A stretch of DNA of 64,000 nucleotides. Source: a virus. Lineage: Duplodnaviria > Caudoviricetes. Shown here one piece after another: positions 2,997 through 38,709 of this stretch. A model generated the notes under the pieces. That model saw nothing but the letters and a program-made list of their open reading frames with translations. It was not told the DNA's origin and did not search any database. Positions within the stretch are counted from its first letter, which is position 1. Every line of letters starts with the position of its first letter. The position numbers and the translations under genes were made by a program. The stretch lies in the IMG/VR virus record IMGVR_UViG_3300020399_000003, positions 9,994 to 73,993 of that record. One strand, 5' to 3'.

Positions 2997-3992
2997 ATGG
3001 CATTTGAATACACAAATAAACTTAATATCTCTTTACCATTAGCTGTATTTCTTATGTATGACAGCTATGATCACGATCAGCGTGATAATGTCATTAGCGC
3101 TACTGGACTATTAAGACCTATTAAACAACTAGTATTAACTCAACAAAACAAACATCTAGATACAATTAAAGATGTTAGTGACCTAGTAGCTGCCCGGATG
3201 GGTACTGCTATTCACGATGCTTGTGAAAAATCTTGGTCTAATCGTAATAATGTATTAGAAGCTCTTAAATTAATGGGAGCAGCTGATGGTGTTGTTGATA
3301 GTATTAGAGTCAATCCAGAAGATCCTGACTCATTAGAAGAAGGGCATCTAGCAATTTATGTAGAACAACGAGCTGAAAAAGAAATTATGGATATGATTGT
3401 ATCAGGTAAATACGATTTAGTATTAGATGGTCAATTAAGTGACTATAAATCTACTTCTGTATGGACATATATTTACGGTAGTAAAGTAGAGGACTATATT
3501 AAACAAGGTAGTATTTATAAATGGTTAAGCCCAAGTAAAATTACAGGCGATACAGTCACTATTCATTATATATTCACAGATTGGTCAGCTAGTGCAGCTA
3601 GAAATGATCCTAAACGATATCCTCAACAACGAATTCTCTCTAAAGAATACCCATTATGGAGCATAGAAGAGACTGAAAATTGGATCAAGAACAAACTAGA
3701 ACTTTATCAAACACTTGCACACTCTTCTCAAGAAGAATTGCCAGAATGTACTGATGAAGAGCTATGGGCCACAGAGACTAAATATAAATATTATAAAAAT
3801 CCTGAAAAAACTCTAAAATCTACTAAAAATTTCAGTACAATGGATGCAGCACTAATCAAAAAAGCGGAAGACGGTAACGTTGGAATTATTAAAGAAGTTC
3901 CAGGAGAAGTTAGAGCTTGTCAATATTGCCCCGTAGCACAGATTTGTACACAGGCTGAATTAATGCAGGCAAGTGGACGACTATTACTATAG
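2997..3992 (+). CDS. PD-(D/E)XK (Cas4-like) nuclease, N4 gp42-like
   Basis: GKYDLVLDGQLSDYKS motif, GTAIHD, C-terminal CQYCPVAQIC cysteine cluster. Confidence 0.8.
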   Translation: MAFEYTNKLNISLPLAVFLMYDSYDHDQRDNVISATGLLRPIKQLVLTQQNKHLDTIKDVSDLVAARMGTAIHDACEKSWSNRNNVLEALKLMGAADGVVDSIRVNPEDPDSLEEGHLAIYVEQRAEKEIMDMIVSGKYDLVLDGQLSDYKSTSVWTYIYGSKVEDYIKQGSIYKWLSPSKITGDTVTIHYIFTDWSASAARNDPKRYPQQRILSKEYPLWSIEETENWIKNKLELYQTLAHSSQEELPECTDEELWATETKYKYYKNPEKTLKSTKNFSTMDAALIKKAEDGNVGIIKEVPGEVRACQYCPVAQICTQAELMQASGRLLL

Positions 3993-11068: not shown

Positions 11069-11225
11069 TCTACAAGAAGCACTACTAATAGTGAGTAAAC
11101 TATTAAATGATTACTTAAACGATCCTAATATTTCAGTAACCAAAGAACAAGAACAAGCTGTACTATTAATTAGAGATATAGCTGAGGGTAACGGTTGGAG
11201 TATTCAGAATGAATTCCGGGATTAG
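11061..11225 (+). CDS. Small hypothetical protein (54 aa)
   Basis: Overlaps the previous stop; converges on the vRNAP stop. Confidence 0.5.
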   Translation: MINLQEALLIVSKLLNDYLNDPNISVTKEQEQAVLLIRDIAEGNGWSIQNEFRD

Positions 11226-14200
11226 AAATTCTTTAGATCTGATAGTACTTCAAAGAGAGTTATATTATTTGCTTCATCAAATAGATCATCAGTCTGGAAG
11301 ACATTCGGTGAGAAGTCTCCACCCATCCAAGCACTATTCACATTACCTAGAGTAGGAATTCCGGACATTTCCTGTAGAAGAGCAGAGATAGCAACAGATG
11401 ATGGATTACTCATTACTAGTTTCTTAACAGCTCTTTGATTTCTTAACCAATAAGATAAAAAGGAAGTAGCACCAAGAGCGTCAAGCATTTCTAATGGAGC
11501 AATAAGAGACTCATCAAATAATACGAATGCTTCTAATGCTTCATGTAATGATTCTTTAAAGGATTTTCCTAAAACATTTTGACTATGTTCCATCATTACA
11601 TATCGACCCATAAAATCTGTCATCTGTACTACTTGTTTAGAGTATTGATATGGAATACTTTCTTTAGTCCAAAACAATGTATGTGCAACTGTTTGTACTG
11701 ATCGTGGAATTTTATCCCCAACGTTTTTAAGTTTACCTTTAAATAGTAGACGAGACATTCTATTCCAATATCCATCCAACTGAGCCGCATTAAGATCCTC
11801 AATAATTAATGAATCCACACCTGCTTCATTCATTTTATGAATTTTATTTCCTTTAATTCTAACTCTTAATCTTTTTACTTTTTGAGCTTCAGGACTATTA
11901 TCTGGTAATTTTTTTGTATCAATATCATACTGAAGCTTATTCATTTCAATAGTATCTTTACTGTATTTCTTATATTCAGAAAGTCCTTCAATTAATTTAT
12001 TAAAAATATAAGACGGTGGAATTTTACGCATCATTAACTGTGTTACATTTGACATCATATTCAAAAATATAACTTTTGGAATTGCTAATACTACTCGATT
12101 CTTACCCCACCCTACTGTTTCTTTAATTGTATAATGACTTAAACCGGCAACTCTTTCAGCTAATGGATGTTTATTATTCTCAAAAATTTTTGCTTGAGTA
12201 ATATCTTTTTGTTTATATCCAAAGACCTTATCAACAATATCAATTCGAACCATGAACTCACCATTAACAGCAAACTCTTGCATATATTCTCGAATTGGAC
12301 GAGGCATTTTCTTATAACGTTCATGATATGCCGATGCGGGATCTAACATATTAATAAACTGCTTCGGGTGAGTTTTATATAGCTCTTCCTGTTCATGTAC
12401 TAATAAGTGAATTGTTTCTTTATCATTTAAAATCGTATTTTTACGATCCACTAAATTAGAATGCATATGCGCAAATACATTCTGGAATTCTAAATCAGGT
12501 CTAATAATATTTTTTGTGTCTTCATGATTCATCATTATTCGATAATCAACTATCTTATTATTCTGATCAAATAACGGACGAAATTTAAATCGATCATCAA
12601 ATCCTAACTTCTTAGCTAGTTTATTTTGATGTTGTTTAAATTGTTTAAGCTTAGCGCGAATTGCAGGCATATCTGGCCTACCAGTATTACCAACCTGATA
12701 GGCAGGATTTAAACTTAATATTTCTGTTAACGTTGTTCCTTGATTCCGTGTATTAGTCGTAGACATAATCCCAGATACATCTTTTACTTCTGGTTTATTT
12801 CGATTAATATACATAACATAGTGTGTTTGATTAGTAGCTATTTTACTTAATTTAACAGACTCTGTATATCCTCTCTCATCAAATTCCTCTTTTTGTTCTA
12901 CTGTACCAATTTGAATATCAGTTAGATTATCCATGCGTTCGACAACGTATCCTTTCATCATTTGAGTAGGATCACCATCGAATAAATCTTTTCGAGATTT
13001 TGCTTTAAAATTAATATGCGCTTGCATAATACTAATAATGCCATTTTGTTGAGAATCAGCTTTAAATTCATTTTTAGCTAAGTCTTTAATTAAATGAGCA
13101 TCTTGTGTATCAATATGATCTAATGCTGAAATGGTTGCATATGCATCTAATAAACCTACTCGTTCTTCTGTAGGATTAGAAAGATAATCTAAAGCTATTG
13201 AATATGCATTAGATCGAGCGTCTGCTAATCGTTCAGTTAATCCTGTCATTTGCCAATACCCTAATTCATCAGCATATTGGATAGCAGCACTATCTGCTGT
13301 TACACCTAATCTGCGTAGTATATCTAGTTGTAATTGTTTTCTAGCTCGTATTGAATTCTTATCTTTACCAATTAATCCAATAATCTTTTTCATTCCAGCA
13401 GGTGAATTAAGATCTAAACCGGCAGTTATAAGTTGAGATATATCACTGCGTAACATTACATTAGTGAGTGCTTCCCTGGTTTCAACAGACATAGCATGTC
13501 GTTTAGTTGGATCTAATGATTTCCAAATACTTTTTATCCCATCTCGTTTATTTCCATTAAACCAATCTATTTGGAATGTTTCTGCTAGTTGACGTTGTTT
13601 TGATATATGAACTTTTGATTGAAGTAGTTGTTCAATCATTTTCTCACTAAGAACACCATCTCCAAATTCTTTAAGAAGTCCTCGCATTGAATAGTTCATT
13701 TTTTCCATCCAACTATTCCGAGCTTCAGTGATAGTATTATCTTCACCAAAATAAATATATGGTAGTGCAATTAATCCAGTAGCAATTTTTAATCCAGGAT
13801 CAGCACTTTCAAAACTAGGTTTTCCTTCTTCAGTAGATTTAACTACTGCTCTCGCATATTTTTTATAAGCTTTATTAGCAAAATTTCTAATTATTTGATC
13901 AGATGCATCTAAAGCTTTATATGTTTTACTTTGTATTTGTTCAGCTTTACTTTTATGTTTATTCTGAATTGCAACGAGTTGTTCAGTTATGGCAATAGCT
14001 TCTGACAACTGTAAGTCATTCTCAGGCTTATACACACGTTGCCCTAACACTTCTCTAACAATATCAACAATATTTTTAATCATATCTAACATTCGTCCGT
14101 ATAACCCGGTCCTTTGAGCAATGGAATTACTCTTCATGAAATTAGATAGAGACGCATTCGTATTAGCATAAGCCATAAACTCATGTAATCGAGCTTCTTC

Positions 14201-17200
14201 TTTTGCATGGAATGCATGCTGATATTGTTTTTTAGCCATAACAATTTCTGCAGCAGTAGCTAATTTTGTAGGACCTGTACCAGGTGGTAAGAACACTTTA
14301 TAACCTTGTCCTTTACCGTATGTTAGTTCTAAAGTAGTTTCAACATTTGAATACAATCTTTCAATTCTTTGCCTAACTAAAGGGGATTGATCAATAGCTA
14401 TAGAAGTCATCCCATGTAGTAGTTCATGAGTATAGACTTCCTGAGGAGATTGACCATTACGAATTCTTGGGGCATTTCGACTAGCTGAAATTGTTATTCT
14501 TTCTTGAGCTTCACTATATGTTCCTTGAGTAATTCCTTCGATTTGTTCATATGTTAATTGAATGCCTGCTGTTGCATCAAAACCTTTACTTAATATATCT
14601 AATACGCGACTTAGACTATCTGTATGACTAGCTTCTTCTTCCGCGTTATTATAATAATTACCTGATAGCTCAACAAAATCATTAAATAATGTTTTAACTT
14701 TATTACGAGTTATGTCACCCATATCTTTTGGGTCACCATAAATCTTTCCTTTCTCAGCCAGTAAAGATTTTAATTCTTGTTTATCCTCTTCAGTAAAAAA
14801 GTCAAAAGAAGTTTGATGTTCTTCGTACGTTCTAGTAAATGTTTCTGCGATCTCTTTTTTAGCTACTGGATTACGTTCTCTATTATTAACTGATTCTTCA
14901 GCTGTAGCTAACATTCCCTCTCTCAATACTTGATCTTGAGATTGACCTTCTGGTTTCTGCATAAACATTTGTAGAGATTCATTAAGTCCACCATTTTCAG
15001 AAGCTAATTTTTCAAGTTGTCGTCTTGCTTCTAAAACTTTGTCTTTTACTTTTGCAAAACCTTCTATTAGTTCTTGATAACCAATTTTGTCATCATCAGA
15101 TTTATTCTTATTATCAAAAAATTCATTTTTAACCCAATCCATAAGTTCTGCTTCAAGACTACGAACACCTTCAGGCCATTCATTATTGTTTTTTTCTACA
15201 ATATCATTATCCATTTGAGAGGTAATACCAAGAACCTTTTGGACTTGATCATAAGTTTGCTCAATAACACTATGTGTTCGATTATAGTGGAGAAACAATT
15301 GTCCATAAGCTGCACTAATGGTAGATAGCTGTTCTGGGCTAGCCATAAATGCATCATGTAGCATTAATACATTTAAATCCCCAACCCAACGTTTACCATC
15401 AACATTAATATTTGAATCACCATTCATTGTCTGAGTTAGCAGAACAGAGTCCATATTAATGATCTGACGAATTAAAGCAGACACTCCAGGCTCAATAAAT
15501 CTTAATTGTTGTGGGAAGGTATTATGAGTTTGAGAAGTATTAGAATCATACTTACCATCTTTACCCTGATTAGCTGTTCTATATTCTATTCTTTCGTCAG
15601 CAAGTTTATCTCTACCTTGAAGACTTGAAACTAAATCTAATTGTATTTCTTCAGGAATATCCTTTTTAAAATTTATTATTTTAATTAATCTAGTTTTAGC
15701 ATTTTCAGTTAAGTCATCTACATTCTCTTCAACAAAATTAATGAGTTCTTTACTACTCATTTTATCAATGTTTTCAGGTACTCCTATTTTCTCGTTTAGT
15801 ACTGAAACATTTTCAGTTTTAGATAAATCAATAAATCCTTCCGTATTACCATTTTCATCAATACTAGATATAGGTCCTTTATACTGAGGAAATACTTTAA
15901 TCAACTCACCTTTTGTATCTTTAATTAACTTAGTTAATTCATGTTTAGTTAAAGAACTACGACCAACTTCTTTTAATTTTGTATCATAGGCTCGTTTAAA
16001 ATGAACCATAAACGTACCATGCAGTACTCCACCCATTTGAACAATGGTATCTCTAGCTTCCTGAGTAGGCGCTAACATAGTCTTAAGACCATGATCAAAT
16101 CGAGGAGCTATTGTAGTACTGATATTGGCACGGAGGTAATTATCATTAAAATATTTATTTAATGATTCACCTTTTTTCATAGATTCTATAAATTGTGCTT
16201 TTGTAACAACAGGTTTAGTACCTCGATTCTCTTGTCGAAAAGCTCCTAATGCTTCTAATGCATTTACAAAATCAGTCATCTGTTTTGCATAACTTCGTAA
16301 TTCTTGAGCAATATCTGCAGCTTCTCCTTCAAGTCGTTCACCTACGTCTGTAAATTTATATTGTTGGAAAAAAGCTTCTGCTTCTGCAGACGATGCTCTC
16401 ATACTATTGTATGTTTGTTGCATTACTCCAACTTGGGAGTAGAGTTCACTAATAATATCTTTAGTAACGTCTTTAGAAATACGATCTATACCGCCACCGT
16501 ACATATGGATAATAAACGGGTATTTAACTACACTGCGTAGGGCTCCAGCATCTTGTGTAAAATCGGGGTAGATAGTATTAAGTGCAGCATTTAATTTATT
16601 ATAGTCACTAAGTAAATTCTCAGCAGCTTTCTTCTCAATTTTTTCATTACCTTTATCTTTTTTCTTTACATGATAATTCCATTTATTTTCTTTATATAAA
16701 GAGAATTCACTATAATCATCTTTCCATCGATTCTTATTAATAAAATCAATTGCTATCTTATTGGATTTAGATTCAAGATTTAATGTTCCATCGCCCATTG
16801 CTTCTTGTACATACTCTGCAAGAGTCTGATAGGTATCTGGAGCTTTAGTATCATGCTCAGTATCATTACCAAAATATGTAGCTACTTTAGCAAGCATCTC
16901 TGGCATATTTTTCCACATAGGAAATTGCATAACATTCATTGCAAAGCCATTAGAGATACCATCAATCTCCATAACAATATCTGATTCAAATGATTTATTA
17001 ATTGTTTTTCTAAAGCCAAGCTTAGCTGATTTACTAGGAGATACGGTCATGTACTGAGCTAATCCAGCAATACCCTGGAGTAAAGACATGTTGCCACCTT
17101 TAGTATCTTCGCCAAATTTAACAATAGATAACGCATCAGCAAATTCTTTAGCTGCTGCTTTCTTCGCCACCAGTGCATTCTTATGCTTAGTCTTATTAGC

Positions 17201-20200
17201 TTTTTTAAGCTTAGTGCTCTCTACAAGATTTCTTGCTTTAGTTAATTTTTGATAAGCATGAACTGCAGCTAATACATTACTGTTATTAACAAGATCATTA
17301 AAATAAGTTTTTGAGTCACCATAAGTTTGTTTATCAATATCACTTCCAAAATTCTGAGCAACAGCTAACTCAAACTTCCATAGATTTTTTTCGTTGTAAG
17401 TTTTTGGTTCCCAGGATTTTAATAGGAAACGATCAACTTTACTTCCTTGAGGATTGATCTTGCCTTCTTGCATAATACGATGATGATTCTGCAGGCTATA
17501 AGTAAAATAAAATTTATCTAATTCATTACGATCATTAGCCTCTACAAGTCTTTTTAAGCTAGCTAATTTATCTCTATTAGAAGCTGCTTTAGACTCCATA
17601 TCATATTCATGCCATCTACCTTTTTTAATAGGTTCACCGTTTTTATCTATTTTACGTTTACCATCTTTATCTAATACATATACATATTCACCATTAGCAT
17701 CTTTTTCATATAATTCTTCAATACCCATTACTTGTTCTAGAACATCACTATGATCTTCAAATAGATCACTAACTATATCCATTGGTTGAGATTTACTCCA
17801 TTCAACCTTATGTAGTTTTTTCATGAGTCTTTGAACTTCTTGAGGTACTTCTCCAAAAGTACCGGGTACATCAGTTCGAATATCTCGTGGATTTTGTAGC
17901 GGACCAGCATTAGATTGAATATCTAAATTAAGTGTTGTAGTTAGATCCTTTACTGCAGCTAATCCCTCTTCTGAAGGTGGGCGCTTCTCATTAACCTTAA
18001 GTTGCCTATATCCAAATCCATCTTTATCAGCTTTAGACCCCTTAACATTATTGTTATAGGCTCTGCCTGGTACAGTAGCTTCATCGAATGCCCATTTATG
18101 TACATCTTTAATAAAGTAAGCTTCACTATCATTGCCTTGAGCTGTTTCAATAGCTGCCATTCCAAGAGCAGGAATTAGATGTTCATAGTATATATCTATT
18201 CCTTCTTGTGTTAATTCACCAGAAGCTTTAGTTGGGGATAAGTGTAGCATCTGGGATATGTCATATCCTATCTGTCTAGCTACATCGTTATAGCTGTATC
18301 CTAATTTACCTAGTTCAGTCTTCTCATTTTGATTTAATTTTTGAGTATTATTATAGAGAAAAGTTTCCATTTTATAGTCACTATCTCCAAATACATTATT
18401 ATCTGCAGTTCTTTGTCTCCATGTCATTGCACCAACCATCATTGAGAATATAACTTGATTAGGTAATATTCCTTGATGATTATCAGGATTTTTCGTATCT
18501 TCACGATACAGTAATGACAAGGGTTGTCTAATAGCGTAATTAGTTGTATCAATTAAATTTGCAAGTGGGACTGTAAGAGCTTTACCATCATTTGCATTAG
18601 GAGCTTGAATTACTGCTTCTTTTCCTTTAATAGCTAAAACTTTAAATTGGGTACCCGCATATTTAGCTTCATTTTCAGTAGAGCTACTATCTACTAATAC
18701 AACTGTATTTCCTTTTACAATTGCATGATAAAGAGTTTCTCTAAAACGTTTTGCAAATTTGCTGTACCTAGCAACTAAAACTTTAGCTGATTTAGGATCA
18801 AGTCCTAGATTTGTTAATGCTTTAGTTAGTGCTTTAGTAGATTCAAAATCAGCATCAGAAAGAGTATGAATACCTCCTTCTTTAACTCGTTTACCTATAT
18901 TAACTAAATCAGTAAATTTTTTCCCAACTAGGCCGAGAGCTTTATCTAAATTATCTTTGCTTACTGCTTTAAGAGCTGTTTGATATATTAGAGTAGCAGA
19001 CTCTACAAAATTCTTTCCTGCGAAGGAGAATTCGATTTGCTCTCCGGGCTTACCTTCTTCATCTTTAGTAGTTTCTCGCACATCAGGAGTAGATTCATCA
19101 GGAGATTTAGCAGATTCTTCAGGTGCTTTATCTTCTGTCCGAGTGTCATCTCCTGCTGGTTCATCAGTTTTGGATTCTGCGATACGTGATTCAAGACCTG
19201 CAATTGTTGTTTTGAGTTCGTCAATTTTGTCTCGAAGAATTTTTTTATTCTCATCACCTTCCCCCAGTTCATTAAATGCATCAACAGTAGTCTTTAATTC
19301 TGTTTTAGCTTCTTTTAATTGATTTTCTAAAGTAGAAGCTTCGTCTACTGTTTCATCAATTTTAATATCTTCTCGTTGTTCATCTGTTACTTCTTCAACA
19401 ACGCGAGGCATAGCCCCTCTTAGCTTAACTAGTGTGTCATATACGTTTTGCTTAGCTTTAATCTTAATTTCTTGATTAGCAGCTGTTTGGGCCATAGAAG
19501 TCTTCTTATAACCCTGCACTGTTCCCATAATTAACTTGCCATATTTAACTTCTCCTTCTAAATTATTAATAAGACCATCAGACTTATTAATAGTAAAGTT
19601 TGCAAATTTATGGGTTTTATCACTGATAAGAGTAACGAATTGTCCATTAGTTTTACGAGCTTCAAATGATGATCCTTCTTTATATTCAACTCCATTAGCT
19701 TTAGCTTGAGCTTTTGCATCTGCTTCAGTTAATGGCATAGAAACCGTTTTGTAGTTCATTTTGCGTACACCTCTCGGTGACTTTTCATCAATTGAACCTA
19801 CAACAACAGCACCCATACCAGAGGCTAAGTTAGGGATCATACCTTTAGCTCGTTTAAACTCAGCCAATTTACTACTTAAATTAGTCGCATGAGTAATCAT
19901 TTTCGAAGTAAGTGCTCTAATATGTCTGTCACGAAGTACAGGATCAGTTAGATTCTTATACGAATTAATAATTTCTTCATGGTATTTAGCTAAACCTTTC
20001 CACTTTTTAGTATCACCTTCTAAAATTTCTTCATGAACATCAGCCATTGTTTTTTCGGCTTGTTCTTCTTTTTCAGCTCTTTTAGCTTTTTCTATTTTTC
20101 TATCAACTTGATTTTGCCAATAGAGTGTATCTTCTGCAGGAGCATCTGGATCTGCTTTTGATTGCGCTAATTTTTTCTTTGTTTCATCAATGGATAATTT

Positions 20201-23200
20201 ATCATGCTCTTCTTCGCTATCCTCAATAGAACCAAATGTTTTACCCCCTTTACCGTCATCTTTAGGAGCATATTTTTTAACAAACTCATCAAATTTAGCT
20301 TGGACTAATTTTCGAGCCTCATCGCTCATATTGCGTTGAGTTAATTCTTGAAATTTTTCTAGTATCGTACGAGGAGTTTCATCAGGGCGAACTCGAGGAA
20401 TTAACTGGTCTACTGGAATAGTTTCAGTTAGACCTTTTATGCGTACATGCACTTTTCCATCTTTTAATAATCCAACAATTTCTTCAATTACATAGCCTTG
20501 TGTATCTTGACTTTCTTGATTTTCATCATTTTTTAGATCAACTATATCACCAGGTCCGTAATCTGGATGATCTTCAATAGGTATGTAGTTAGGATTATTT
20601 TTTGGCTCAGCAAGCATTGTTATTTCTTCTAAAATAGCATCAACCCCACTATCATCAATATCTTTTCCAGCATTTTTATTAATTTGAACATTAACTATAT
20701 TTTCTTGCTTACCTTCAAGTTGAGTTGTTACTTTTTCTAATTGAAGTTTTTGATATTCTTTTTCAGCTTTTAATAAACTTGGTTTAGCTGTTTCTTCTAA
20801 TACCTTTCCAATTTTATTTATTTTTTCTTGTACTTTTTCCGTAGCTATAATTTTTTGAATATCAGAAGATTTTTCATCAGCTTCAATTGTTTTAAGATCT
20901 TCTTCATATCCTTCAACTTCTTTATTTAATGCTTCCCCATATTGTGTATCTTTTACTTTAATCGTATCAGTATCTGACCGTCCTGCAAAAGTTTCTCTTA
21001 TACTATTTTCTTTAGTAACAACTTGAGGTAAACGACTTTGTAATGTATCTAATTCTGACCCTGAAGTATTTAAATTTTCTTCTAAATCTGTACTAATAGC
21101 ATTTATCACATCGTCTACAGTACCATTAGTTTGATTAGCTAAATCTTTATGTTTCTCAAATAATTTTTTAATTTTAGGATTTTTTGTTTCTACTTTTAAT
21201 TCACCACTTTTTGCATCAGTAGTAACATTAGGTAATTCAGCTATAGCTGATTCAACTTCTACAACTTCATTAGTTAGTTCTTCTAAACGCGCAAGATCTT
21301 TAGGATTCGTATCCTTTTCAAATTTTTCAATTCTTTTAATTTGTTCTTCTATTGCAGTTTTTTTCTTTTTTAATCCATCTTTTAATTGTTGTTCATTTGA
21401 TGGACTAAGAATTTTTTTAGTAACAGCTGTTGTTACATTTGCTGCAACAAATGTAGGTCCTAATGTTAGAGATCCAAGTCCTTCCATTAATGCGCCCTTA
21501 TATGTTGCTCTCCAATCAACTGTTTCTTTGGGTAGTTGTCCCTCAATAACTACTTCTGCACCACCTTGAACAGCTTCACCAGCTGCACCACTTACGAAAT
21601 CAACAGCTTTACCTCCAATTTTACCTAAAATTTTAATGCTAGTAGGAGTATTCTCTCCTATCTTTTTAGCTATTTTTCGAATCCACTGCACATGTCCTCC
21701 AGGAGGACCTTTACCAACTACTTTATCTAAATAACCTAAACTTATTTTTTGAGTAATTACTTTTAATGCCATCCAATTTTCAATAGAATTTTGAACTTCT
21801 GGCGTGTAATTTTCTTCCCCATGCTTTTCAATCCATGCTGCTTTAGCACGTTGAGATTCATCTCTAATAAAAGTAGTTAATGTGGCACTTCCTGTAAACA
21901 ATCCTCCAGCAACTAAAGCTAAAGAATACGCAGCACTACCTAATCCTTCTTTAGCATAAGCTGCTTTATGATTTTTTAACATTTCCCAAACAGCAGCAAG
22001 TTCACCATCTTTATCAGCAATTAAATCATAAATTGATTGACTCGCTTGAAATCCAGCATCATTTGTTGGGAAAAGAGCTCTCCATTTATCCGCGTATTCT
22101 GTAATCCTTTCTCTTTGTTCGTTGTTTTCATCAGCTTCTTTTTGTAATTTAGAAAGTACTCCAAATTTTGGATCGTTTTTAAATTGTTCTTGAGCAGTAG
22201 TTAAAGTTTTACTAGTAAGAATAGATCTATACATTTTAACATCTGCAGGTGTAAGATCAGTTTCTTTCTTATTAAGTAGTACTTGAGCCTGTTTTAATTT
22301 ATTATAATTATTAACTTTTCCTTGTAGACTTTGTTCTCCAACAATAGCACCTGCAACATATGCATCAAGACCACCAATACTTCCCATTAAATAGTTCTTA
22401 ACATCACCAATAGACCATTCTTTATAAGCACCATTAGCTTGATTTGCAGCATCTCGTGCAAAACGAGTAGCATAATAAGTTGCTTCTTCTTCAGTTAAAT
22501 TAGTTACGGGTTTACCATTAATAATTGCAACCCATGTACCATCTTCAAGTCCTAAAACATTAGGTCCTTTAGTTTTAACAACTGGAGAATTTATCTCCAT
22601 ATGTGGTGCTTCAGTTAATGCAAGAACACTAGCTTTTACATGTGGACTAACATCCATATTCATAATAGATAAACGTTGTTCTTCTTTAGGATCACTGCTA
22701 CTTACTAAATCATAATAATTAACATTAGATGGGGGCGGTAATGTAGATGGATCTGATTTTGCTCCTACTCCTATAGCTATACTATCTCCTGCTTTTCCTA
22801 AACCTTCTAATGCTTCACCTGGAGCTTTAGATCCACCTTTAACTAATGCATCTTTTGCATCAACCCATTTTTCTTTATCAGATAGTATTTCTCCAGATTT
22901 ACTTACTCCTTTTACAAAATTATTTTTTGCATCAACTAATCTATTGCCAAGTTCTTTAGCTATTTCAATATCAGCTAAAACATCTTTTGTTATTACTGTA
23001 GCGGTACCTTTAACTTTAGCAACTCCTGTATCAATAAGTTCATCTGCTTTATTAAGTATGTCATTACCAAATGCTTCTAATTGATCAAATACTTTAGCAG
23101 CATCAGCAGTAGAAGGAAGATCAGGAAGTTGATCTGTAATTGATTTAACAGCTTTTTCGGCACCTTTTAGTGCTAAATCTGGAGCTTGTGAAACACCACT

Positions 23201-24742
23201 AATAAAAGCATCTTTTGCTTCAACTAATGTATTGCCAAGTTTTGTGGCTTCTTCACTAACTTTTTCTACACCTGCTTCTAATTGATTAAGTACTACTGAT
23301 TCTTTTTCAGGATGGGGCTTATGTTCTTTAAGAGGAGTTAATTTCTGTTCAGTCTCTTCAATCGATTCTTCAACAACAGGTTCAACAGCGGATGTTTCTG
23401 GAGCAGGAGTAGCGTATGTATCTTCAGCTCCAAATTCATCAATTCCTTCAATTCCCGCACGGATACTTTTAAGCTCCTCTTCTTCATCCTTAACCTCCGG
23501 TGGAGGAGTTAGTGGTCTACCAAGTTTTTCTGGGTGTCTCTTTAAATCTTGTTCATACTGTGCTTTTCTAGCTAATGCATCCTGTTCTTCTCTACTAAGA
23601 CTAGTATCTTCTAATTCATCACCAGGATCAGGTTCAATAGGTGTAGCAGACTCTTGGCTAACGCCCGAGTCTGCTACGCTACCATCTCCAAATTGGTAAT
23701 CTTCTTCTTCAAAATCAATAGGTTTCTCAAAAAATAGTTCCTGACCCTCCACTATGGAGTCAGGATCTTTTTTAGTCCAAGGGTTGTATTCTTTTAACTT
23801 CTCTAATGATATATTATTGCGTTTAGCAATTAATGATAATGTATCACCCTTTTTTACCACATATGTGCCTGTCGGTGGATCAGCTGGGGCATACTGATGT
23901 AAATGCTTTGACAAGTGATCTACTAGACCCTGTGGAGTGGGCTTATTCCTAAACCAGGATTCATTATTTAATGGAACTCTCTTACTAAGAAATGTTGAAG
24001 CTTCCTTAGTCTCTCCATCTCTAGCAAGTTTCAGAATTTCAGGCCCCTTACCTGATCCGAGAGTATGCATTATGTACATATTTGTATTCGTTATAGGAAG
24101 ATTATTCTTTTTCAAAATCTTTATATTGTCGTCCATGAACGCTTCATGTGCTTTCCTTGCTTGTTCTGGATCTTTACGTCCGTCTATAGCCTTGGGATTA
24201 GCTTTACTTGGGTAAGTTAGACCCAAATTAGGATGCTTCTTCATTAAATCCAACCATGTGCCTTCAATAAACTGGAAACTTCCAGTAGCTGATGAAGTTT
24301 TATTTTTAGCGTTGGACCCTTCCGCACCACCTTCTGCTGGCATAACAAGGTTAGTATATGCATTTCTATCCCATTCTTTTTCTCCTGGTGGAATTTCTGT
24401 TGGACCCGTTCCAGTCCGTACAGTATTGAATGTAGAAGCAGGGGGTTTATCAGCTGGGGCATAAGCATTTACATCATGTGCATCTACGATGTCCATGTGG
24501 TTTGTAAGCGTTTCAACACGAGGATCAATACCTAAAGCTTTTTTAACTTTAAGTACAGCTTTAGCTGTATCAACATTTTGCTTTGAATTGTTTTTTGCAA
24601 AAGCTAATTTAGCTTTAGCCACTGCAACATCGGATGTTTCTGTAGGAGGGGGAGTAGCTACTGCAGCGCCATTCGTAGATTGATCAGGAGTTGTGGAGTT
24701 TGTTAATTGTTGTATAATCTCTTCATTGGTCGGCTGAGCCAT
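11222..24742 (-). CDS. Virion-encapsidated RNA polymerase (N4 gp50-like) with N-terminal lytic transglycosylase + LysM extension
   Basis: 4506 aa, no Cys found on reading. T7-like motifs: HRIMQEGKINPQGSK, A EIDGISNG, B RSVVKYPFIIHMYGGG, C LHDAF. HELLH zincin motif in the C-terminal part; AEGG...SSATGSFQFIEGTW and a LysM near the N-terminus. Confidence 0.95.
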   Translation of the reverse strand: MAQPTNEEIIQQLTNSTTPDQSTNGAAVATPPPTETSDVAVAKAKLAFAKNNSKQNVDTAKAVLKVKKALGIDPRVETLTNHMDIVDAHDVNAYAPADKPPASTFNTVRTGTGPTEIPPGEKEWDRNAYTNLVMPAEGGAEGSNAKNKTSSATGSFQFIEGTWLDLMKKHPNLGLTYPSKANPKAIDGRKDPEQARKAHEAFMDDNIKILKKNNLPITNTNMYIMHTLGSGKGPEILKLARDGETKEASTFLSKRVPLNNESWFRNKPTPQGLVDHLSKHLHQYAPADPPTGTYVVKKGDTLSLIAKRNNISLEKLKEYNPWTKKDPDSIVEGQELFFEKPIDFEEEDYQFGDGSVADSGVSQESATPIEPDPGDELEDTSLSREEQDALARKAQYEQDLKRHPEKLGRPLTPPPEVKDEEEELKSIRAGIEGIDEFGAEDTYATPAPETSAVEPVVEESIEETEQKLTPLKEHKPHPEKESVVLNQLEAGVEKVSEEATKLGNTLVEAKDAFISGVSQAPDLALKGAEKAVKSITDQLPDLPSTADAAKVFDQLEAFGNDILNKADELIDTGVAKVKGTATVITKDVLADIEIAKELGNRLVDAKNNFVKGVSKSGEILSDKEKWVDAKDALVKGGSKAPGEALEGLGKAGDSIAIGVGAKSDPSTLPPPSNVNYYDLVSSSDPKEEQRLSIMNMDVSPHVKASVLALTEAPHMEINSPVVKTKGPNVLGLEDGTWVAIINGKPVTNLTEEEATYYATRFARDAANQANGAYKEWSIGDVKNYLMGSIGGLDAYVAGAIVGEQSLQGKVNNYNKLKQAQVLLNKKETDLTPADVKMYRSILTSKTLTTAQEQFKNDPKFGVLSKLQKEADENNEQRERITEYADKWRALFPTNDAGFQASQSIYDLIADKDGELAAVWEMLKNHKAAYAKEGLGSAAYSLALVAGGLFTGSATLTTFIRDESQRAKAAWIEKHGEENYTPEVQNSIENWMALKVITQKISLGYLDKVVGKGPPGGHVQWIRKIAKKIGENTPTSIKILGKIGGKAVDFVSGAAGEAVQGGAEVVIEGQLPKETVDWRATYKGALMEGLGSLTLGPTFVAANVTTAVTKKILSPSNEQQLKDGLKKKKTAIEEQIKRIEKFEKDTNPKDLARLEELTNEVVEVESAIAELPNVTTDAKSGELKVETKNPKIKKLFEKHKDLANQTNGTVDDVINAISTDLEENLNTSGSELDTLQSRLPQVVTKENSIRETFAGRSDTDTIKVKDTQYGEALNKEVEGYEEDLKTIEADEKSSDIQKIIATEKVQEKINKIGKVLEETAKPSLLKAEKEYQKLQLEKVTTQLEGKQENIVNVQINKNAGKDIDDSGVDAILEEITMLAEPKNNPNYIPIEDHPDYGPGDIVDLKNDENQESQDTQGYVIEEIVGLLKDGKVHVRIKGLTETIPVDQLIPRVRPDETPRTILEKFQELTQRNMSDEARKLVQAKFDEFVKKYAPKDDGKGGKTFGSIEDSEEEHDKLSIDETKKKLAQSKADPDAPAEDTLYWQNQVDRKIEKAKRAEKEEQAEKTMADVHEEILEGDTKKWKGLAKYHEEIINSYKNLTDPVLRDRHIRALTSKMITHATNLSSKLAEFKRAKGMIPNLASGMGAVVVGSIDEKSPRGVRKMNYKTVSMPLTEADAKAQAKANGVEYKEGSSFEARKTNGQFVTLISDKTHKFANFTINKSDGLINNLEGEVKYGKLIMGTVQGYKKTSMAQTAANQEIKIKAKQNVYDTLVKLRGAMPRVVEEVTDEQREDIKIDETVDEASTLENQLKEAKTELKTTVDAFNELGEGDENKKILRDKIDELKTTIAGLESRIAESKTDEPAGDDTRTEDKAPEESAKSPDESTPDVRETTKDEEGKPGEQIEFSFAGKNFVESATLIYQTALKAVSKDNLDKALGLVGKKFTDLVNIGKRVKEGGIHTLSDADFESTKALTKALTNLGLDPKSAKVLVARYSKFAKRFRETLYHAIVKGNTVVLVDSSSTENEAKYAGTQFKVLAIKGKEAVIQAPNANDGKALTVPLANLIDTTNYAIRQPLSLLYREDTKNPDNHQGILPNQVIFSMMVGAMTWRQRTADNNVFGDSDYKMETFLYNNTQKLNQNEKTELGKLGYSYNDVARQIGYDISQMLHLSPTKASGELTQEGIDIYYEHLIPALGMAAIETAQGNDSEAYFIKDVHKWAFDEATVPGRAYNNNVKGSKADKDGFGYRQLKVNEKRPPSEEGLAAVKDLTTTLNLDIQSNAGPLQNPRDIRTDVPGTFGEVPQEVQRLMKKLHKVEWSKSQPMDIVSDLFEDHSDVLEQVMGIEELYEKDANGEYVYVLDKDGKRKIDKNGEPIKKGRWHEYDMESKAASNRDKLASLKRLVEANDRNELDKFYFTYSLQNHHRIMQEGKINPQGSKVDRFLLKSWEPKTYNEKNLWKFELAVAQNFGSDIDKQTYGDSKTYFNDLVNNSNVLAAVHAYQKLTKARNLVESTKLKKANKTKHKNALVAKKAAAKEFADALSIVKFGEDTKGGNMSLLQGIAGLAQYMTVSPSKSAKLGFRKTINKSFESDIVMEIDGISNGFAMNVMQFPMWKNMPEMLAKVATYFGNDTEHDTKAPDTYQTLAEYVQEAMGDGTLNLESKSNKIAIDFINKNRWKDDYSEFSLYKENKWNYHVKKKDKGNEKIEKKAAENLLSDYNKLNAALNTIYPDFTQDAGALRSVVKYPFIIHMYGGGIDRISKDVTKDIISELYSQVGVMQQTYNSMRASSAEAEAFFQQYKFTDVGERLEGEAADIAQELRSYAKQMTDFVNALEALGAFRQENRGTKPVVTKAQFIESMKKGESLNKYFNDNYLRANISTTIAPRFDHGLKTMLAPTQEARDTIVQMGGVLHGTFMVHFKRAYDTKLKEVGRSSLTKHELTKLIKDTKGELIKVFPQYKGPISSIDENGNTEGFIDLSKTENVSVLNEKIGVPENIDKMSSKELINFVEENVDDLTENAKTRLIKIINFKKDIPEEIQLDLVSSLQGRDKLADERIEYRTANQGKDGKYDSNTSQTHNTFPQQLRFIEPGVSALIRQIINMDSVLLTQTMNGDSNINVDGKRWVGDLNVLMLHDAFMASPEQLSTISAAYGQLFLHYNRTHSVIEQTYDQVQKVLGITSQMDNDIVEKNNNEWPEGVRSLEAELMDWVKNEFFDNKNKSDDDKIGYQELIEGFAKVKDKVLEARRQLEKLASENGGLNESLQMFMQKPEGQSQDQVLREGMLATAEESVNNRERNPVAKKEIAETFTRTYEEHQTSFDFFTEEDKQELKSLLAEKGKIYGDPKDMGDITRNKVKTLFNDFVELSGNYYNNAEEEASHTDSLSRVLDILSKGFDATAGIQLTYEQIEGITQGTYSEAQERITISASRNAPRIRNGQSPQEVYTHELLHGMTSIAIDQSPLVRQRIERLYSNVETTLELTYGKGQGYKVFLPPGTGPTKLATAAEIVMAKKQYQHAFHAKEEARLHEFMAYANTNASLSNFMKSNSIAQRTGLYGRMLDMIKNIVDIVREVLGQRVYKPENDLQLSEAIAITEQLVAIQNKHKSKAEQIQSKTYKALDASDQIIRNFANKAYKKYARAVVKSTEEGKPSFESADPGLKIATGLIALPYIYFGEDNTITEARNSWMEKMNYSMRGLLKEFGDGVLSEKMIEQLLQSKVHISKQRQLAETFQIDWFNGNKRDGIKSIWKSLDPTKRHAMSVETREALTNVMLRSDISQLITAGLDLNSPAGMKKIIGLIGKDKNSIRARKQLQLDILRRLGVTADSAAIQYADELGYWQMTGLTERLADARSNAYSIALDYLSNPTEERVGLLDAYATISALDHIDTQDAHLIKDLAKNEFKADSQQNGIISIMQAHINFKAKSRKDLFDGDPTQMMKGYVVERMDNLTDIQIGTVEQKEEFDERGYTESVKLSKIATNQTHYVMYINRNKPEVKDVSGIMSTTNTRNQGTTLTEILSLNPAYQVGNTGRPDMPAIRAKLKQFKQHQNKLAKKLGFDDRFKFRPLFDQNNKIVDYRIMMNHEDTKNIIRPDLEFQNVFAHMHSNLVDRKNTILNDKETIHLLVHEQEELYKTHPKQFINMLDPASAYHERYKKMPRPIREYMQEFAVNGEFMVRIDIVDKVFGYKQKDITQAKIFENNKHPLAERVAGLSHYTIKETVGWGKNRVVLAIPKVIFLNMMSNVTQLMMRKIPPSYIFNKLIEGLSEYKKYSKDTIEMNKLQYDIDTKKLPDNSPEAQKVKRLRVRIKGNKIHKMNEAGVDSLIIEDLNAAQLDGYWNRMSRLLFKGKLKNVGDKIPRSVQTVAHTLFWTKESIPYQYSKQVVQMTDFMGRYVMMEHSQNVLGKSFKESLHEALEAFVLFDESLIAPLEMLDALGATSFLSYWLRNQRAVKKLVMSNPSSVAISALLQEMSGIPTLGNVNSAWMGGDFSPNVFQTDDLFDEANNITLFEVLSDLKNF

Positions 24743-24777
24743 GAGGTATCTTTACTTATATAAAAGTTCATAAAAAG

Positions 24778-26754
24778 TTATTGATAAGGATTCTTTGAAT
24801 TTCCTTTATTAATCTTTTTACCCATTATTGCATTTTTTGCATTTTTTACAGAAGTATTTATCTTCGAGTAATCAACATTAACTGTCCCAGTAAGACTACT
24901 AAATCTATTACTTACAGGTATAGGTTTTAACCTATCAAAATTTGCTCCCAGACTATTAAGAGAGGTTTTTACTGATCTCCACCCACTAGACATCCTACCT
25001 AAATCTTGAGATTGCGCATCAGCAAGTCTTCCTTGAGCAAATTCAGTAAATCTATTAATTCCTTCTGTTACATTAACATCTCCATCTCTATTCGTTTTAA
25101 TAGATCGTTGTGAATCTGGGAGTGCTTCTACAAATAAATTTAACAATTCATAATCGGAAGTATCACTCATTTGTCGATATCTATTTAAAGTTGAAAATAC
25201 AAGATCATTTCCGTCAAATGGTAAGCTATCTTCATCAATACCTGCATTTCCAATAATAGCTTTAGAGACAGCTAATCGGAACGCTGCTAATGTTTGTTTA
25301 CTAGCACCAGGAAGAAATCTACCCTTTTCATCCTTAAAAAATCCTTTTATTCGATCTACTACTTGTGCAGTTTCCCTAGATATTTCATTAGCATCTTCAT
25401 GAGAGATACTATCACCAGATTTAAATTTTAATTTAGTTAACTTATTAGTCAATCTATCGGCTATATAAGTTTTTGTACCATGCTGTGCCATATTAAAGAG
25501 AGCTTTATGCTGTTGTGCTTTATATTCCTGAGCTGCCTCTCTAAAATCTGAATCTAGATTTGATTGAAATGCAGCATCTTTTTTTCCCTCAGAAATAGCG
25601 TAACCTAGTGCTTGATTATTTTTAATAACTTTAGCAATTTGCGGGTCTAATAATCTATCTGGTAAGTTAGGATATTTTTTACGATATGTTTCTTTTAAGT
25701 CTGCTATTAACAAAGAAGCCTGCATTGGTGATATTTTTTTTGCTGTTTTATAATCTACACCACCATACTCAGCATTTTCAAAAACAGCAGCAGGATCTAC
25801 CTTAGAACGATCTAATGCTAATTCTACATTTTTATTAAATACGTCAGCTTCTGGTCCAGTTATGTTATTTGCTTGTAAGAAATTTAAAGTCTTATTTACT
25901 TCAGCATCAACTAAATCAGGATCTTGTAAACTAATTGCATTTGCTATAGCTGCACTACGTTCTTTTAATCGAACACTTTGAGTAGTTTCGCCTGCTTCAA
26001 GTTTAGTTTGTCGATCAAAATTTTGTCCCCATTCAGATTTACTTAATAAATCTTTAGCTCTTTTATCAAATACTGATTTATCACGTATACCGGGCCATTG
26101 TGCTTCTAACCTATCTGAGATAGTACTAACAGCTCTATCATGTGCTGCTTTACCAAAATTACTTGGATTAGTCATATCCACGCCTACTCCTACAGCAGCT
26201 TGGATGGTATCAGGACTTACAGTAATATCAGCATTACCAAATTCTTGATCATAAATGTCAGTGATTGCTTTATCAGGAGTTCCGGTGGCAAGATTACGTT
26301 GATGTAGTTCTTCTGCTTTTGCTTTGTATTCAGGTGTACCAGGAGTAAATTGTGCAAGTTCCCCAAGTTCTTTTTTTATTGTTATCTTATTTTGGTATCC
26401 TTCTAATACATCTTTAGCACCTATATCTGAAATAATATTAGCTGTTCTTAATTTCTCTTCGTTTAATAAACCTAAAGTTCGTGCATCTCCTGCTGTACTA
26501 GCTGTCCCTTTATCTGCTAAAGGGCTAAGATTACCTAATATATTTTGAACTTCATCTTTAGTTTGAGCTTGAGATAGAGCTAAATTAACATCATCATCAG
26601 CGCTACTACCTATAGTCCCAAGTGCGTCTTTAGCTTCTGCTAATGCAGCATTACGAATGCTAGCAGCATCTGTGTATCCTGCTCGCAGTTTATCTAAGAG
26701 AGTATTATCTCTCCTACGCATTACTGATGATATATTTCCTTTTAATACTGACAT
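24778..26754 (-). CDS. Putative ejection/internal virion protein (gp51 position)
   Basis: Directly upstream of vRNAP; Ala/Asp/Lys-rich, no Cys seen. Confidence 0.6.
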   Translation of the reverse strand: MSVLKGNISSVMRRRDNTLLDKLRAGYTDAASIRNAALAEAKDALGTIGSSADDDVNLALSQAQTKDEVQNILGNLSPLADKGTASTAGDARTLGLLNEEKLRTANIISDIGAKDVLEGYQNKITIKKELGELAQFTPGTPEYKAKAEELHQRNLATGTPDKAITDIYDQEFGNADITVSPDTIQAAVGVGVDMTNPSNFGKAAHDRAVSTISDRLEAQWPGIRDKSVFDKRAKDLLSKSEWGQNFDRQTKLEAGETTQSVRLKERSAAIANAISLQDPDLVDAEVNKTLNFLQANNITGPEADVFNKNVELALDRSKVDPAAVFENAEYGGVDYKTAKKISPMQASLLIADLKETYRKKYPNLPDRLLDPQIAKVIKNNQALGYAISEGKKDAAFQSNLDSDFREAAQEYKAQQHKALFNMAQHGTKTYIADRLTNKLTKLKFKSGDSISHEDANEISRETAQVVDRIKGFFKDEKGRFLPGASKQTLAAFRLAVSKAIIGNAGIDEDSLPFDGNDLVFSTLNRYRQMSDTSDYELLNLFVEALPDSQRSIKTNRDGDVNVTEGINRFTEFAQGRLADAQSQDLGRMSSGWRSVKTSLNSLGANFDRLKPIPVSNRFSSLTGTVNVDYSKINTSVKNAKNAIMGKKINKGNSKNPYQ

Positions 26755-26763
26755 GCTAGCCCC

Positions 26764-27273
26764 TTATACAGTAAAGTTAGTTTTCTTATTTTCCATGCCT
26801 TGTGCTTTACGATGTTGATTCTGATCTTCTTCTCTAACTCTATAGTCACCCATACCTAATTTCCATTTTCTATTTACATCCTTTTGATCAAATACCATAG
26901 CTTTTTCTACTTGATCCATATACTGTTGTTGTTGGCCCATTGCTTGATTTTGATTATAAGCACCCCAAAGATTCATTGCTATTTTCGCAGCATCCATAGG
27001 ATGACCACCCATCCAAGAACCCATTTTACTAAGCATACCTGGAACTGGCTGAGGATCTGCTAAAATACCGGAGTTTGATCGCATACCCTGACCAAATTTC
27101 TCTTGTAATCTCCATATAGGAACTCCACCAAGGGTTGGCGAAGTATCTTCCATAATACCTCCACTCATATCGTGAAGCCCATCTTGCTGCCCAGCTCTCG
27201 GTTTCCATGACGCTTTCCATCGATCTTCCCAATTATTAAAATTTTGTTGATTTAAAGGTTTACCATAATTCAT
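26764..27273 (-). CDS. Putative internal virion protein (gp52 position)
   Basis: Gln/Gly/Met-rich; synteny. Confidence 0.5.
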   Translation of the reverse strand: MNYGKPLNQQNFNNWEDRWKASWKPRAGQQDGLHDMSGGIMEDTSPTLGGVPIWRLQEKFGQGMRSNSGILADPQPVPGMLSKMGSWMGGHPMDAAKIAMNLWGAYNQNQAMGQQQQYMDQVEKAMVFDQKDVNRKWKLGMGDYRVREEDQNQHRKAQGMENKKTNFTV

Positions 27274-37596: not shown

Positions 37597-37959
37597 ATGG
37601 GCGATTTAACTGCTAATTTTGATCGATCAGAGTATGCTTGTAAATGTGGATGCGGTAGAGATGATATTAAGCAGGAATTAGCTGAAAAGGTCCAACTAGT
37701 AAGAGATAAATTAAAACGCGGTATTCGGATTAATAGTGGGGTTAGATGCGAAAGACACAATGGTAATATAGGAGCCAGTGCTTCTAGCTCTCATGTAGGT
37801 GGCTGGGCGGCAGATTTAGGCTATCAAGGCTCTAGACAACGGTTTGAACTTATTACTGTATGTGCGCAAGTATTTGATAGAATAGGGATTGCAAAGAATT
37901 TTATACATGTAGATGTAGATGCTAATAAGACTGCTGGTGTAATTTGGATGTATTCTTAA
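37597..37959 (+). CDS. Peptidase M15 family endolysin
   Basis: INSGVRCERHN...SSHVGGWAADL...FIHVD Zn ligands. Confidence 0.88.
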   Translation: MGDLTANFDRSEYACKCGCGRDDIKQELAEKVQLVRDKLKRGIRINSGVRCERHNGNIGASASSSHVGGWAADLGYQGSRQRFELITVCAQVFDRIGIAKNFIHVDVDANKTAGVIWMYS

Positions 37960-38044: not shown

Positions 38045-38707
38045 TCATTTTGTTTTAGTCATAGCTGCAAGTGGATTCTCCAGAGCTTTCATAATCTTCT
38101 TATCAATCTTCGTTTCTAATGCTTCTATTTGGGAATCAACTTTTGTAAGCTTATCATCCCATCTTTTAGATGTATCAAGTATTAGTTCTCTTACTTCTTT
38201 CTCTGTATTCCGCATAGCTTGCCTAGTCTCTAAGCCGTCTGCTCTCGATCTTTTATCTATAGCATCAATCTGATCTAGTTGTTGATTAACAGTGTTTTTA
38301 ATATCTGTTCTAATATCTCTGGCTGTTGCCTGAGCATCAGATACTAAAGTTTGTACTGCTAATATTTCGGCTCTTATTGTATCTTCTGTTTCAGTAACTA
38401 CTGCTCCTAATGTCCTGATTTCAGCATTAATAATTTCTTTTAGTGCAGTGACTTCTGTATTTACAACTTGTCGTTCAAGTTCTAATGAAGCTTTTACACC
38501 ATCTACCGATGTTGTTATAACTTCTAAACGTTTATCAAAAGTTGCTAAATCTGGGGCTACATAAGTAGTAATTTGTTCTTTCATATCCATGTAGTCTTTA
38601 TAGAATTCAAATCCTCCCCATAGTCCTCCGCCCAGTGTTCCTAGAAGCGGTAAGATAAGTAGTAATTTACCACCTGAGATTTTTATACCACCGTATTCAG
38701 CTTCCAT
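38045..38707 (-). CDS. Membrane-anchored coiled-coil protein
   Basis: N-terminal TM (LLLILPLLGTLGGGLWGG), helical heptads. Confidence 0.65.
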   Translation of the reverse strand: MEAEYGGIKISGGKLLLILPLLGTLGGGLWGGFEFYKDYMDMKEQITTYVAPDLATFDKRLEVITTSVDGVKASLELERQVVNTEVTALKEIINAEIRTLGAVVTETEDTIRAEILAVQTLVSDAQATARDIRTDIKNTVNQQLDQIDAIDKRSRADGLETRQAMRNTEKEVRELILDTSKRWDDKLTKVDSQIEALETKIDKKIMKALENPLAAMTKTK

Positions 38708-38709
38708 AT

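Follow-up and report, generated by a model that had tools for sequence, protein, structure and literature searches.

We analyzed a 64,000-nucleotide stretch (hereafter, the window; positions 9,994 to 73,993) of the IMG/VR virus record IMGVR_UViG_3300020399_000003, a 74-kb marine metagenome assembly, and specifically a giant gene on its minus strand. This gene encodes a genuine N4-type virion RNA polymerase (vRNAP; gp50 in Schitoviridae), and the N-terminus of the protein holds a predicted lytic transglycosylase domain followed by a predicted LysM domain, which together probably act on the cell wall during entry. The gene and the regions by which the polymerase was recognized are the following.

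11222..24742, minus strand: whole vRNAP gene, 4506 aa in a single open frame, 0 cysteines (Cys); PHROG 2206
15293..18463, minus strand: T7-like single-subunit RNA polymerase domain, residues ~2094-3150 (motifs A, B and C; iterated N4 mini-vRNAP profile)
11294..14917, minus strand: N4-type C-terminal domain with HELLH, residues 3276-4483 (N4 C-terminal profile match, E 0.0)
14414-14428, minus strand: HELLH, residues 3439-3443 (HEXXH; described as zincin-like in Iyer et al. 2017, PMC5512222)

The open reading frame (ORF) of 4506 codons at 11222-24742 has 0 internal stops, and its product matched PHROG 2206, 'virion RNA polymerase', with an E value of 1e-144, chiefly over residues 3431-4500. The T7-like motif A, DGISNG, lies at residue 2594, motif B (RSVVK..Y) at residue 2736 and motif C (HDA) at residue 3129; the N4 counterpart of motif A, DGVTNG, is found at residue 1556 (D559 of the mini-vRNAP), so that in the window protein this motif is 1038 residues farther from the N-terminus. 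Recognition of the polymerase domain needed an iterated profile, as plain phmmer searches of the PDB with the whole protein or with residues 2001-3300 did not find the N4 RNA polymerase structures; the profile seeded with N4 residues 998-2103 and built over 72 vRNAPs matched residues 2094-2971 with an E value of 4e-108, and the Pfam scan gave a weak PF21894 match in the same region. The N4 equivalent of the HELLH at residue 3439 is HELVH at N4 residue 2228. For the N-terminal half of about 2000 aa, no similarity to the N4 N-terminal domain was detectable with an iterated profile built from the latter (N4 residues 1-906), which found no match anywhere in the window's clade. The closest cultured phages are only ~23% identical over the C-terminal part of the vRNAP.

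The absence of Cys stands against an average of about 1% in the other ORFs of the window. N4 gp50, of 3500 aa, likewise has 0 Cys, and counts of 0-3 were obtained in all 70 vRNAP relatives (cluster representatives). The DEV paper regards cysteine suppression as conserved in the ejection operon of Schitoviridae, and cites an earlier suggestion that relates it to passage through the periplasm (PMC11445570). A previous reading of the window made from the letters and their translations (hereafter, the sequence-only reading) had claimed a single Cys-free vRNAP of 4506 aa, about 1000 aa longer than that of N4. The uninterrupted frame, the PHROG 2206 match, motifs A, B and C and the HEXXH motif bear out the identity of the protein, and the Cys counts its resemblance to N4 gp50. 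The difference in length is also correct (4506 versus 3500 aa), but the SLT and LysM module described below accounts for only ~250 of the ~1000 additional residues.

Predicted wall-active domains at the vRNAP N-terminus

The span 23729-24742, which corresponds to residues 1-338, comprises a leader, the SLT domain and the LysM domain, and is followed by an acidic linker.

24518..24742, minus strand: N-terminal leader, residues 1-75, conserved in the closest relatives (P0003, P0156-P0159 and L003-L005)
23888..24370, minus strand: predicted phiKZ gp144-type lytic transglycosylase domain, residues ~125-285 (PHROG 4067, PDB 3BKH/9XPS, AlphaFold2, Foldseek)
24332..24334, minus strand: codon of E137, predicted catalytic glutamate, equivalent to gp144 Glu115 (alignment; spacing to the SSATG motif)
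24065..24076, minus strand: codons of Y223 to H226 (YIMH), aligned with gp144 Tyr197 and His200 (phmmer alignment)
23735..23863, minus strand: predicted LysM peptidoglycan-binding domain, residues 294-336 (PF01476)
23243..23725, minus strand: acidic linker, residues ~340-500, 26% Asp+Glu, of a length that varies between strains

On homology and modelled fold, residues ~125-285 are a putative family-1 lytic transglycosylase of the gp144 type. Within the envelope of the SLT-like hidden Markov model (HMM), which covered residues 99-302, residues ~143-279 matched both PHROG 4067, 'transglycosylase' (E 3e-18), and, in a phmmer search of the PDB, the solved lytic transglycosylase gp144 of phiKZ (3BKH/9XPS; E 1.4e-8). 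PHROG 3201, annotated as 'tail fiber protein', also matched the domain and is taken to be putatively gp181-like (gp181 being the type of the virion transglycosylases of jumbo phages), judging from its profile length of 2408 residues. From the phmmer alignment, and from a conserved distance to the SSATG motif, E137, Y223 and H226 are equivalent to Glu115, Tyr197 and His200 of gp144, the roles of which have been studied (PMC5406664); as the catalytic glutamate we took the one upstream of the S-S-A-T-G-x-x-Q-F motif (gp144 Glu115, Slt70 Glu478). The four motifs on which the sequence-only reading had relied are present where it placed them, namely MPAEGG, with E137 within it, at residues 134-139, SSATGSFQFIEGTW at residues 150-163, YIMHTLG at residues 223-229 and the LysM string at residues 294-321.

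A HMMER search of 1.8 billion representatives yielded 2902 relatives of the domain, nearly all of them proteins of 200-1200 aa. In a family alignment of 25 sequences (the window domain and 24 relatives), E137 is kept in at least 90%, Y223 is nearly invariant, and A152, G154, Q157, T162, W163, R189, N206, H226 and G229 are invariant. The AlphaFold2 model computed from the family alignment had a predicted local distance difference test score of 87.9, and its top Foldseek match in the PDB was gp144 itself (3BKH; probability 1.00, template modelling score 0.66, root-mean-square deviation 2.9 A), followed almost exclusively by other lytic transglycosylases and lysozymes (MltE, MltD (8RHF), Slt70, phi6 lysin); model and matches agree on an all-alpha lysozyme-like fold. 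The lysozyme-like domain with a catalytic Glu, proposed earlier from the motifs, is thereby supported at the level of predicted fold and conservation. The LysM assignment was confirmed by PF01476, which matched residues 294-336 above the gathering score (42-45 bits against a cut-off of 20.9; E 1e-11).

The same gene order is found in three related IMG/VR loci, with the N-terminal module opening the giant ORF, and the frame is also continuous in L003, L004/L005, P0003 and further independent assemblies; many more full-length relatives are present in the protein database (ENA, JGI, Tara, NCBI). Furthermore, a comparison with sequencing runs, performed on assembled Logan contigs, retrieved from run X5, which belongs to an independent study of marine plankton, a 7.3-kb contig that spans 23318-24745 without stop or frameshift; fragments of low coverage in runs X3 and X6 were uninformative. 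The X5 contig differs from the window only by substitutions and two in-frame linker changes, a 6-nt deletion and the replacement of 41 nt by 176 nt (net +135 nt); the split of the domain from the polymerase that the sequence-only reading had named as a possible refutation was therefore not found in this independently assembled contig.

The 70 cluster representatives, gathered through the C-terminal domain, were scanned for wall enzymes, using an HMM for the gp144-like family and seeds for the other types, and four of them were checked against Pfam. At about the same N-terminal place (residues ~80-350 or nearby), a predicted wall hydrolase was found in 17 of the 23 nearest relatives, defined by a C-terminal identity of at least 45%. 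The fusion thus recurs in other N4-like vRNAPs, for which the sequence-only reading had suggested a survey, and three hydrolase families are involved.

gp144-like SLT: 9 of the 23 nearest, within residues ~80-350
canonical Pfam SLT (PF01464): 6 of the 23 nearest, residues ~116-265
Enc34-type lysozyme: 2 of the 23 nearest, residues ~70-290
no detectable wall enzyme: 6 of the 23 nearest

The Enc34-type domain matched PDB entry 7Q47 (E 3e-8), reported as an 'unusual lysozyme fold' (PMC8943055), and also the N-terminus of the 1295-aa Gp29 (PDB entry 9VVP), while PHROG 342, 'internal virion protein with endolysin domain', gave a weak match (E 0.006) to the alternative cassette of L005. VanY and Phage_lysozyme2 are present in P0205, which is more distantly related. 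PDB searches of P0164 and P0160, in which no hydrolase had been detected, found no alternative wall enzyme. The LysM domain is confined to the window's cluster and P0156, that is, to two of the 70 representatives.

Exchange of the hydrolase domain and other variable segments

A maximum-likelihood tree of the C-terminal domain with 34 rows implies no fewer than 12 changes of hydrolase type, and two sister pairs differ in it. Across 4400 residues, identity between P0003 (SLT) and P0158 (Enc34-type) is ~95-100% in the majority of 100-column blocks and 60-90% in a few internal ones, but only 20% in the two blocks at columns 101-300, where the boundaries are sharp and one domain replaces the other.

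The window was also compared at the DNA level with L003 and L005. From ~24725 to 23460, a region that includes the leader, the SLT and LysM domains and most of the linker, identity to L003 is 89-100% in the majority of 90-column blocks and dips only in a short linker stretch rich in insertions and deletions (indels), whereas from ~23370 onward, into the downstream part of the vRNAP, the window resembles L005 (~90-98% identity) far more than L003 (50-70%). Over the region compared (window 21743-26754), the gene at the position of N4 gp51 is mosaic as well, with a 5' end ~90-100% identical to L003 and a middle part ~90-98% identical to L005. This mosaic ancestry shows that the N-terminal module moves between polymerase backbones in natural populations. 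In addition, the swap between the near-identical P0003 and P0158, together with the occurrence of three families, indicates that selection favours the presence of some wall-cutting enzyme at this site and not one particular domain. Judged from these alignments, the hydrolase domain is an exchangeable cassette among near-identical phages.

Two copies of an exact direct repeat flank the cassette in the window.

24449..24463, minus strand: 15-bp direct repeat, first copy (YAPAD, residues 94-98), just upstream of the SLT cassette
23879..23893, minus strand: 15-bp direct repeat, second copy (YAPAD, residues 284-288), just after the SLT cassette

The repeat reads ATCAGCTGGGGCATA on the plus strand, and its copies, 570 nt or 190 codons apart and in frame, roughly coincide with the boundaries of the P0003/P0158 swap. 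L003 has the same pair (at 8476 and 9046), and the strain of run X5 carries a G>A change at 23888, within the second copy. A chance match was rejected, as only 1-2 of 1000 shuffles reached that length. Recombination between the copies would delete the SLT domain in frame, so that the repeat may be a substrate for such loss, or else a footprint of past recombination.

We tentatively raise a wider possibility, in which we place limited confidence, that the vRNAP start is a hot-swappable 'wall-opener' slot where unrelated glycosidases (gp144-type SLT, Pfam SLT, Enc34-type), with or without LysM, are mounted on near-identical polymerases. The driver would be diversifying selection at entry by host wall modifications (e.g. 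O-acetylation) or by periplasmic inhibitors of lysozymes or transglycosylases, and the cassette would then be a post-adsorption host-range determinant.

Other segments of the protein were recorded as well. A Kyte-Doolittle scan pointed to one candidate membrane segment, which is the sole strongly hydrophobic 19-mer of the protein and is kept in P0156 and P0003.

21866..21922, minus strand: candidate membrane segment, hydrophobic 19-mer, residues 941-959

After the acidic linker, at residues ~500-700 (window ~22640-23240), a motif of ~16 residues was seen by eye three times (LVEAKDAFISGVSQAP / LVDAKNNFVKGVSKSG / WVDAKDALVKGGSKAP), and its last copy is conserved in P0003. Between motifs B and C, at residues ~2700-2900 (window ~16040-16640), the window and P0156, its 93%-identical sister, differ by a large indel or replacement, with 8-23% identity and 52-83 gapped columns per 100; by this comparison, the polymerase domain contains a second variable insert. 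Precomputed Pfam assignments revealed a helicase-type module (AAA_30/AAA_19) in some vRNAPs of the clade, among P0173-P0176, P0179, P0199 and P0212, and UvrD_C_2 in P0173-P0176 and P0212. In P0173, the sole one scanned, the helicase-type module occupies residues ~3139-3625, between the polymerase and the HEXXH domain. Other vRNAPs of the clade carry a 2OG-Fe(II) oxygenase (PF13532) or NADAR (PF08719) domain.

Neighbouring genes and related systems

Around the vRNAP gene, the portal, gp57-like, major head and gp53-like families of an N4-type structural block were recognized. Further genes of the window were assigned as follows.

24778..27273, minus strand: two upstream genes, of 658 aa and 169 aa, at the positions of N4 gp51 and gp52 (ejection proteins), Cys-free
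37597..37959, plus strand: endolysin/peptidase candidate, 120 aa (PHROG 894 'endolysin', E 8e-25; also a peptidase family match)

The 658-aa and 169-aa genes were assigned to gp51 and gp52 by position and size only. No wall hydrolase was detected in either of them, and neither BLASTP against roseophage gp58 nor searches of PHROG, Pfam and the PDB gave any match for the gp51-position protein. Roseophage DS-1410Ws-06 has the SLT family of the window's vRNAP (44% identity, E 5e-22) on a separate 629-aa protein at the gp51 position, adjoining its vRNAP. The putative activity thus appears on either of two neighbouring ejection proteins, the vRNAP here and the gp51-position protein in the roseophage. 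The gp58 of this Dinoroseobacter phage (L001 13440-15329), annotated as 'hypothetical protein', has PF01464 SLT at residues 172-232 and is therefore a candidate for an unannotated virion transglycosylase in a cultured Schitovirus.

The product of 37597-37959 is probably the lysis enzyme of the phage, judging from its family matches, and the presence of this separate endolysin candidate argues against a lysis role for the vRNAP module. Its gene lies on the strand opposite to the vRNAP, among small genes between the portal gene and the ORFs at 38045-40131; these two ORFs, of 220 aa and 473 aa, have no family assignment.

The idea of a vRNAP-lysozyme fusion was already published in 2017, when Iyer, Burroughs, Anand, de Souza and Aravind described N4-like RNA polymerases fused to a lysozyme/transglycosylase domain, with DR90_1081 of a Moraxella prophage as an example, and proposed that the lysozyme domains of such injected 'polyvalent' proteins help to breach the wall (PMC5512222). 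Like them, the window vRNAP combines an N4-type RNA polymerase, HEXXH and a peptidoglycan glycosidase in one giant virion protein, and it differs from them in having a gp144-type SLT domain at the extreme N-terminus, followed by LysM (PMC5512222). Neither this domain order, nor a wall hydrolase as the rule in a marine uncultured clade (17 of the 23 nearest relatives), nor an exchangeable cassette was found in what was read of that paper (PMC5512222). In the literature searched, we likewise found no gp144-type domain at the extreme vRNAP N-terminus with LysM, no description of the arrangement as the rule in a marine uncultured clade, and no exchange of three glycosidase families at one slot among near-identical phages.

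Among single enzymes, phiKZ gp144 (3BKH/3BKV) is the best match in both sequence and fold, and the equivalents of its Glu115, Tyr197 and His200 are conserved in the window. However, gp144 is a 260-aa lysis enzyme with a wall-binding domain, other than LysM, N-terminal to the catalytic domain, whereas in the window the catalytic domain is inside a 4506-aa polymerase. The pairing of SLT with LysM is shared with MltD of Gram-negative bacteria, a fold match (8RHF) in which a family-1 transglycosylase is also tethered by LysM; MltD is, however, a bacterial housekeeping lipoprotein with a different domain order and LysM copy number, and we found no evidence of direct descent.

A proposed role in crossing the cell wall

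T7 gp16 carries an N-terminal transglycosylase domain that is used at entry. It resembles the window vRNAP in being the largest of the ejection proteins in a short-tailed phage, and forms the inner-membrane part of the ejectosome (PMC13434306), but it has neither RNA polymerase nor LysM and is a functional analogue of the window vRNAP, not a member of its family. According to the model described for N4 and DEV, the phage ejects three proteins devoid of Cys: gp52 is the outer-membrane pore, gp51 the periplasmic tunnel, and gp50 (the vRNAP), the largest of them, replaces T7 gp16, with its N-terminal part in or at the inner membrane and its polymerase and C-terminal domains in the cytoplasm (PMC13434306, PMC11445570). 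According to the 2026 N4 paper, peptidoglycan hydrolysis is required, yet none was found in the N4 ejection proteins and the activity is 'presumably provided in trans' (PMC13434306). The window shares with the gp50/gp51/gp52 operon of coliphage N4 (PMC13434306; DEV, PMC11445570) the gene order, the Cys-free ejection proteins and the RNA polymerase and C-terminal domains; in contrast to the N4 ejection proteins, which have no recognized peptidoglycan hydrolase (PMC13434306), its vRNAP has a predicted one. By analogy, the required wall hydrolysis is plausibly supplied, in the window's phage, by the first 340 residues of the vRNAP.

Taken together, the domains, their fold, the conserved catalytic residues, the continuous frame, the recurrence and the cassette exchange point towards an N-terminus that probably serves as a wall-cutting and wall-holding entry module during ejection, as with T7 gp16. 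The packaging, topology, timing and enzymatic activity that we propose would be as follows. The vRNAP would travel inside the capsid and leave it before the DNA does, with its first ~340 residues (the conserved leader, the gp144-type transglycosylase and LysM) as the entry module, joined to the rest by the acidic linker. The protein would exit the tail N-terminus first and cross the periplasm, where LysM would keep the module bound to glycan strands and bonds between N-acetylmuramic acid and N-acetylglucosamine would be cut locally by the transglycosylase, so that the peptidoglycan mesh opens up for the trans-envelope channel. The polymerase and C-terminal domains would then proceed to the cytoplasm, and the acidic linker and the hydrophobic segment 941-959 could set the periplasmic module apart from the cytoplasmic enzyme. 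The analogy with gp16 already drawn in the sequence-only reading fits the current N4 ejectosome model, in which the vRNAP takes the place of gp16 (PMC13434306), and the wall digestion during self-delivery that it suggested is supported by our sequence comparisons.

Several observations weigh against this proposal. The phage is uncultured and known here from sequence alone. Pfam SLT (PF01464) had no match on the whole protein or on residues 1-350, even at an E value of 10, whereas the homologous roseophage domain does pass it with 30.4 bits; the profile check of residues 1-350 suggested in the sequence-only reading was thus positive for LysM and for the PHROG 4067 transglycosylase but not for PF01464. 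The residue after E137 is Gly, where Ser is the family norm. In addition, gp144 devoid of Glu115 keeps about 30% of its activity (PMC5406664), which complicates the view of catalysis in this family. In the N4 model, the tunnel protein of the periplasm departs ahead of the vRNAP (PMC13434306), which blurs the order of events at the wall. Besides, the lack of a hydrolase detectable by the HMM and seed scan in 6 of the 23 nearest relatives indicates that the module is dispensable in some backgrounds, although some of these may be truncated gene calls, such as P0179, which is 1450 aa shorter than its sister.

The module might instead be mainly an anchor, in which LysM and a weak or inactive SLT groove fix the polymerase N-terminus to the wall and so provide a fixed point for transcription and DNA pulling. 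LysM is a binding domain, Gly replaces Ser beside the catalytic Glu, and the N4 vRNAP stays membrane-associated, with an N-terminal part thought to remain in the envelope (PMC13434306). We nevertheless regard a mere anchor as unlikely, since E137, Y223 and H226 are all retained, LysM occurs in just two of the 70 representatives while the glycosidase is common, and the swap with an unrelated lysozyme type whose activity is experimentally established (the Enc34 family) argues that catalysis is selected. The protein might also cleave off the module with its HEXXH metallopeptidase, a kind of processing that Iyer et al. 2017 proposed for polyvalent proteins (PMC5512222), and so release a free enzyme acting in the periplasm at entry or elsewhere. 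The HELLH at residue 3439 in the conserved C-terminal domain and the long acidic linker after LysM are compatible with such processing; however, recombinant full-length N4 gp50 was undegraded, with an intact N-terminal domain by immunoblot, in the 2026 study (PMC13434306), and there is no known cleavage site. We consider self-cleavage improbable and, in any case, more a variant of the entry proposal than a true rival.

There remains the question of whether the fusion itself might be an artefact, that is, an assembly chimera or a missed stop or frameshift that joins a lysin gene to the vRNAP gene. The origin of the window in a metagenome assembly and the separate SLT gene of the roseophage could raise this suspicion, but the continuous frame in L003, L004/L005, P0003 and the further assemblies, the restriction of the differences in the independent 7.3-kb contig over 23318-24745 to substitutions and in-frame indels, and the presence of a separate gp51-position gene upstream of the vRNAP leave it with next to no probability, and we regard it as effectively refuted.

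A probable wall-cutting entry module in the vRNAP is of interest chiefly for the exchange of its cassette and for what it implies about the way in which N4-like phages get past the wall. In annotation, Pfam overlooks SLT domains of the gp144 type in giant virion proteins; to recognize them, PHROG, PDB or fold searches are needed. The window's clade indicates where the wall-cutting activity not found in the N4 ejection proteins can sit in N4-like phages, namely on the polymerase itself, as predicted for the window's phage and most of its nearest relatives, or on a neighbouring ejection protein, as in the roseophages. The exchange of unrelated cutting domains at a fixed place is comparative evidence for selection on the activity, and suggests that the wall-crossing step varies between infections and may help to determine host range.

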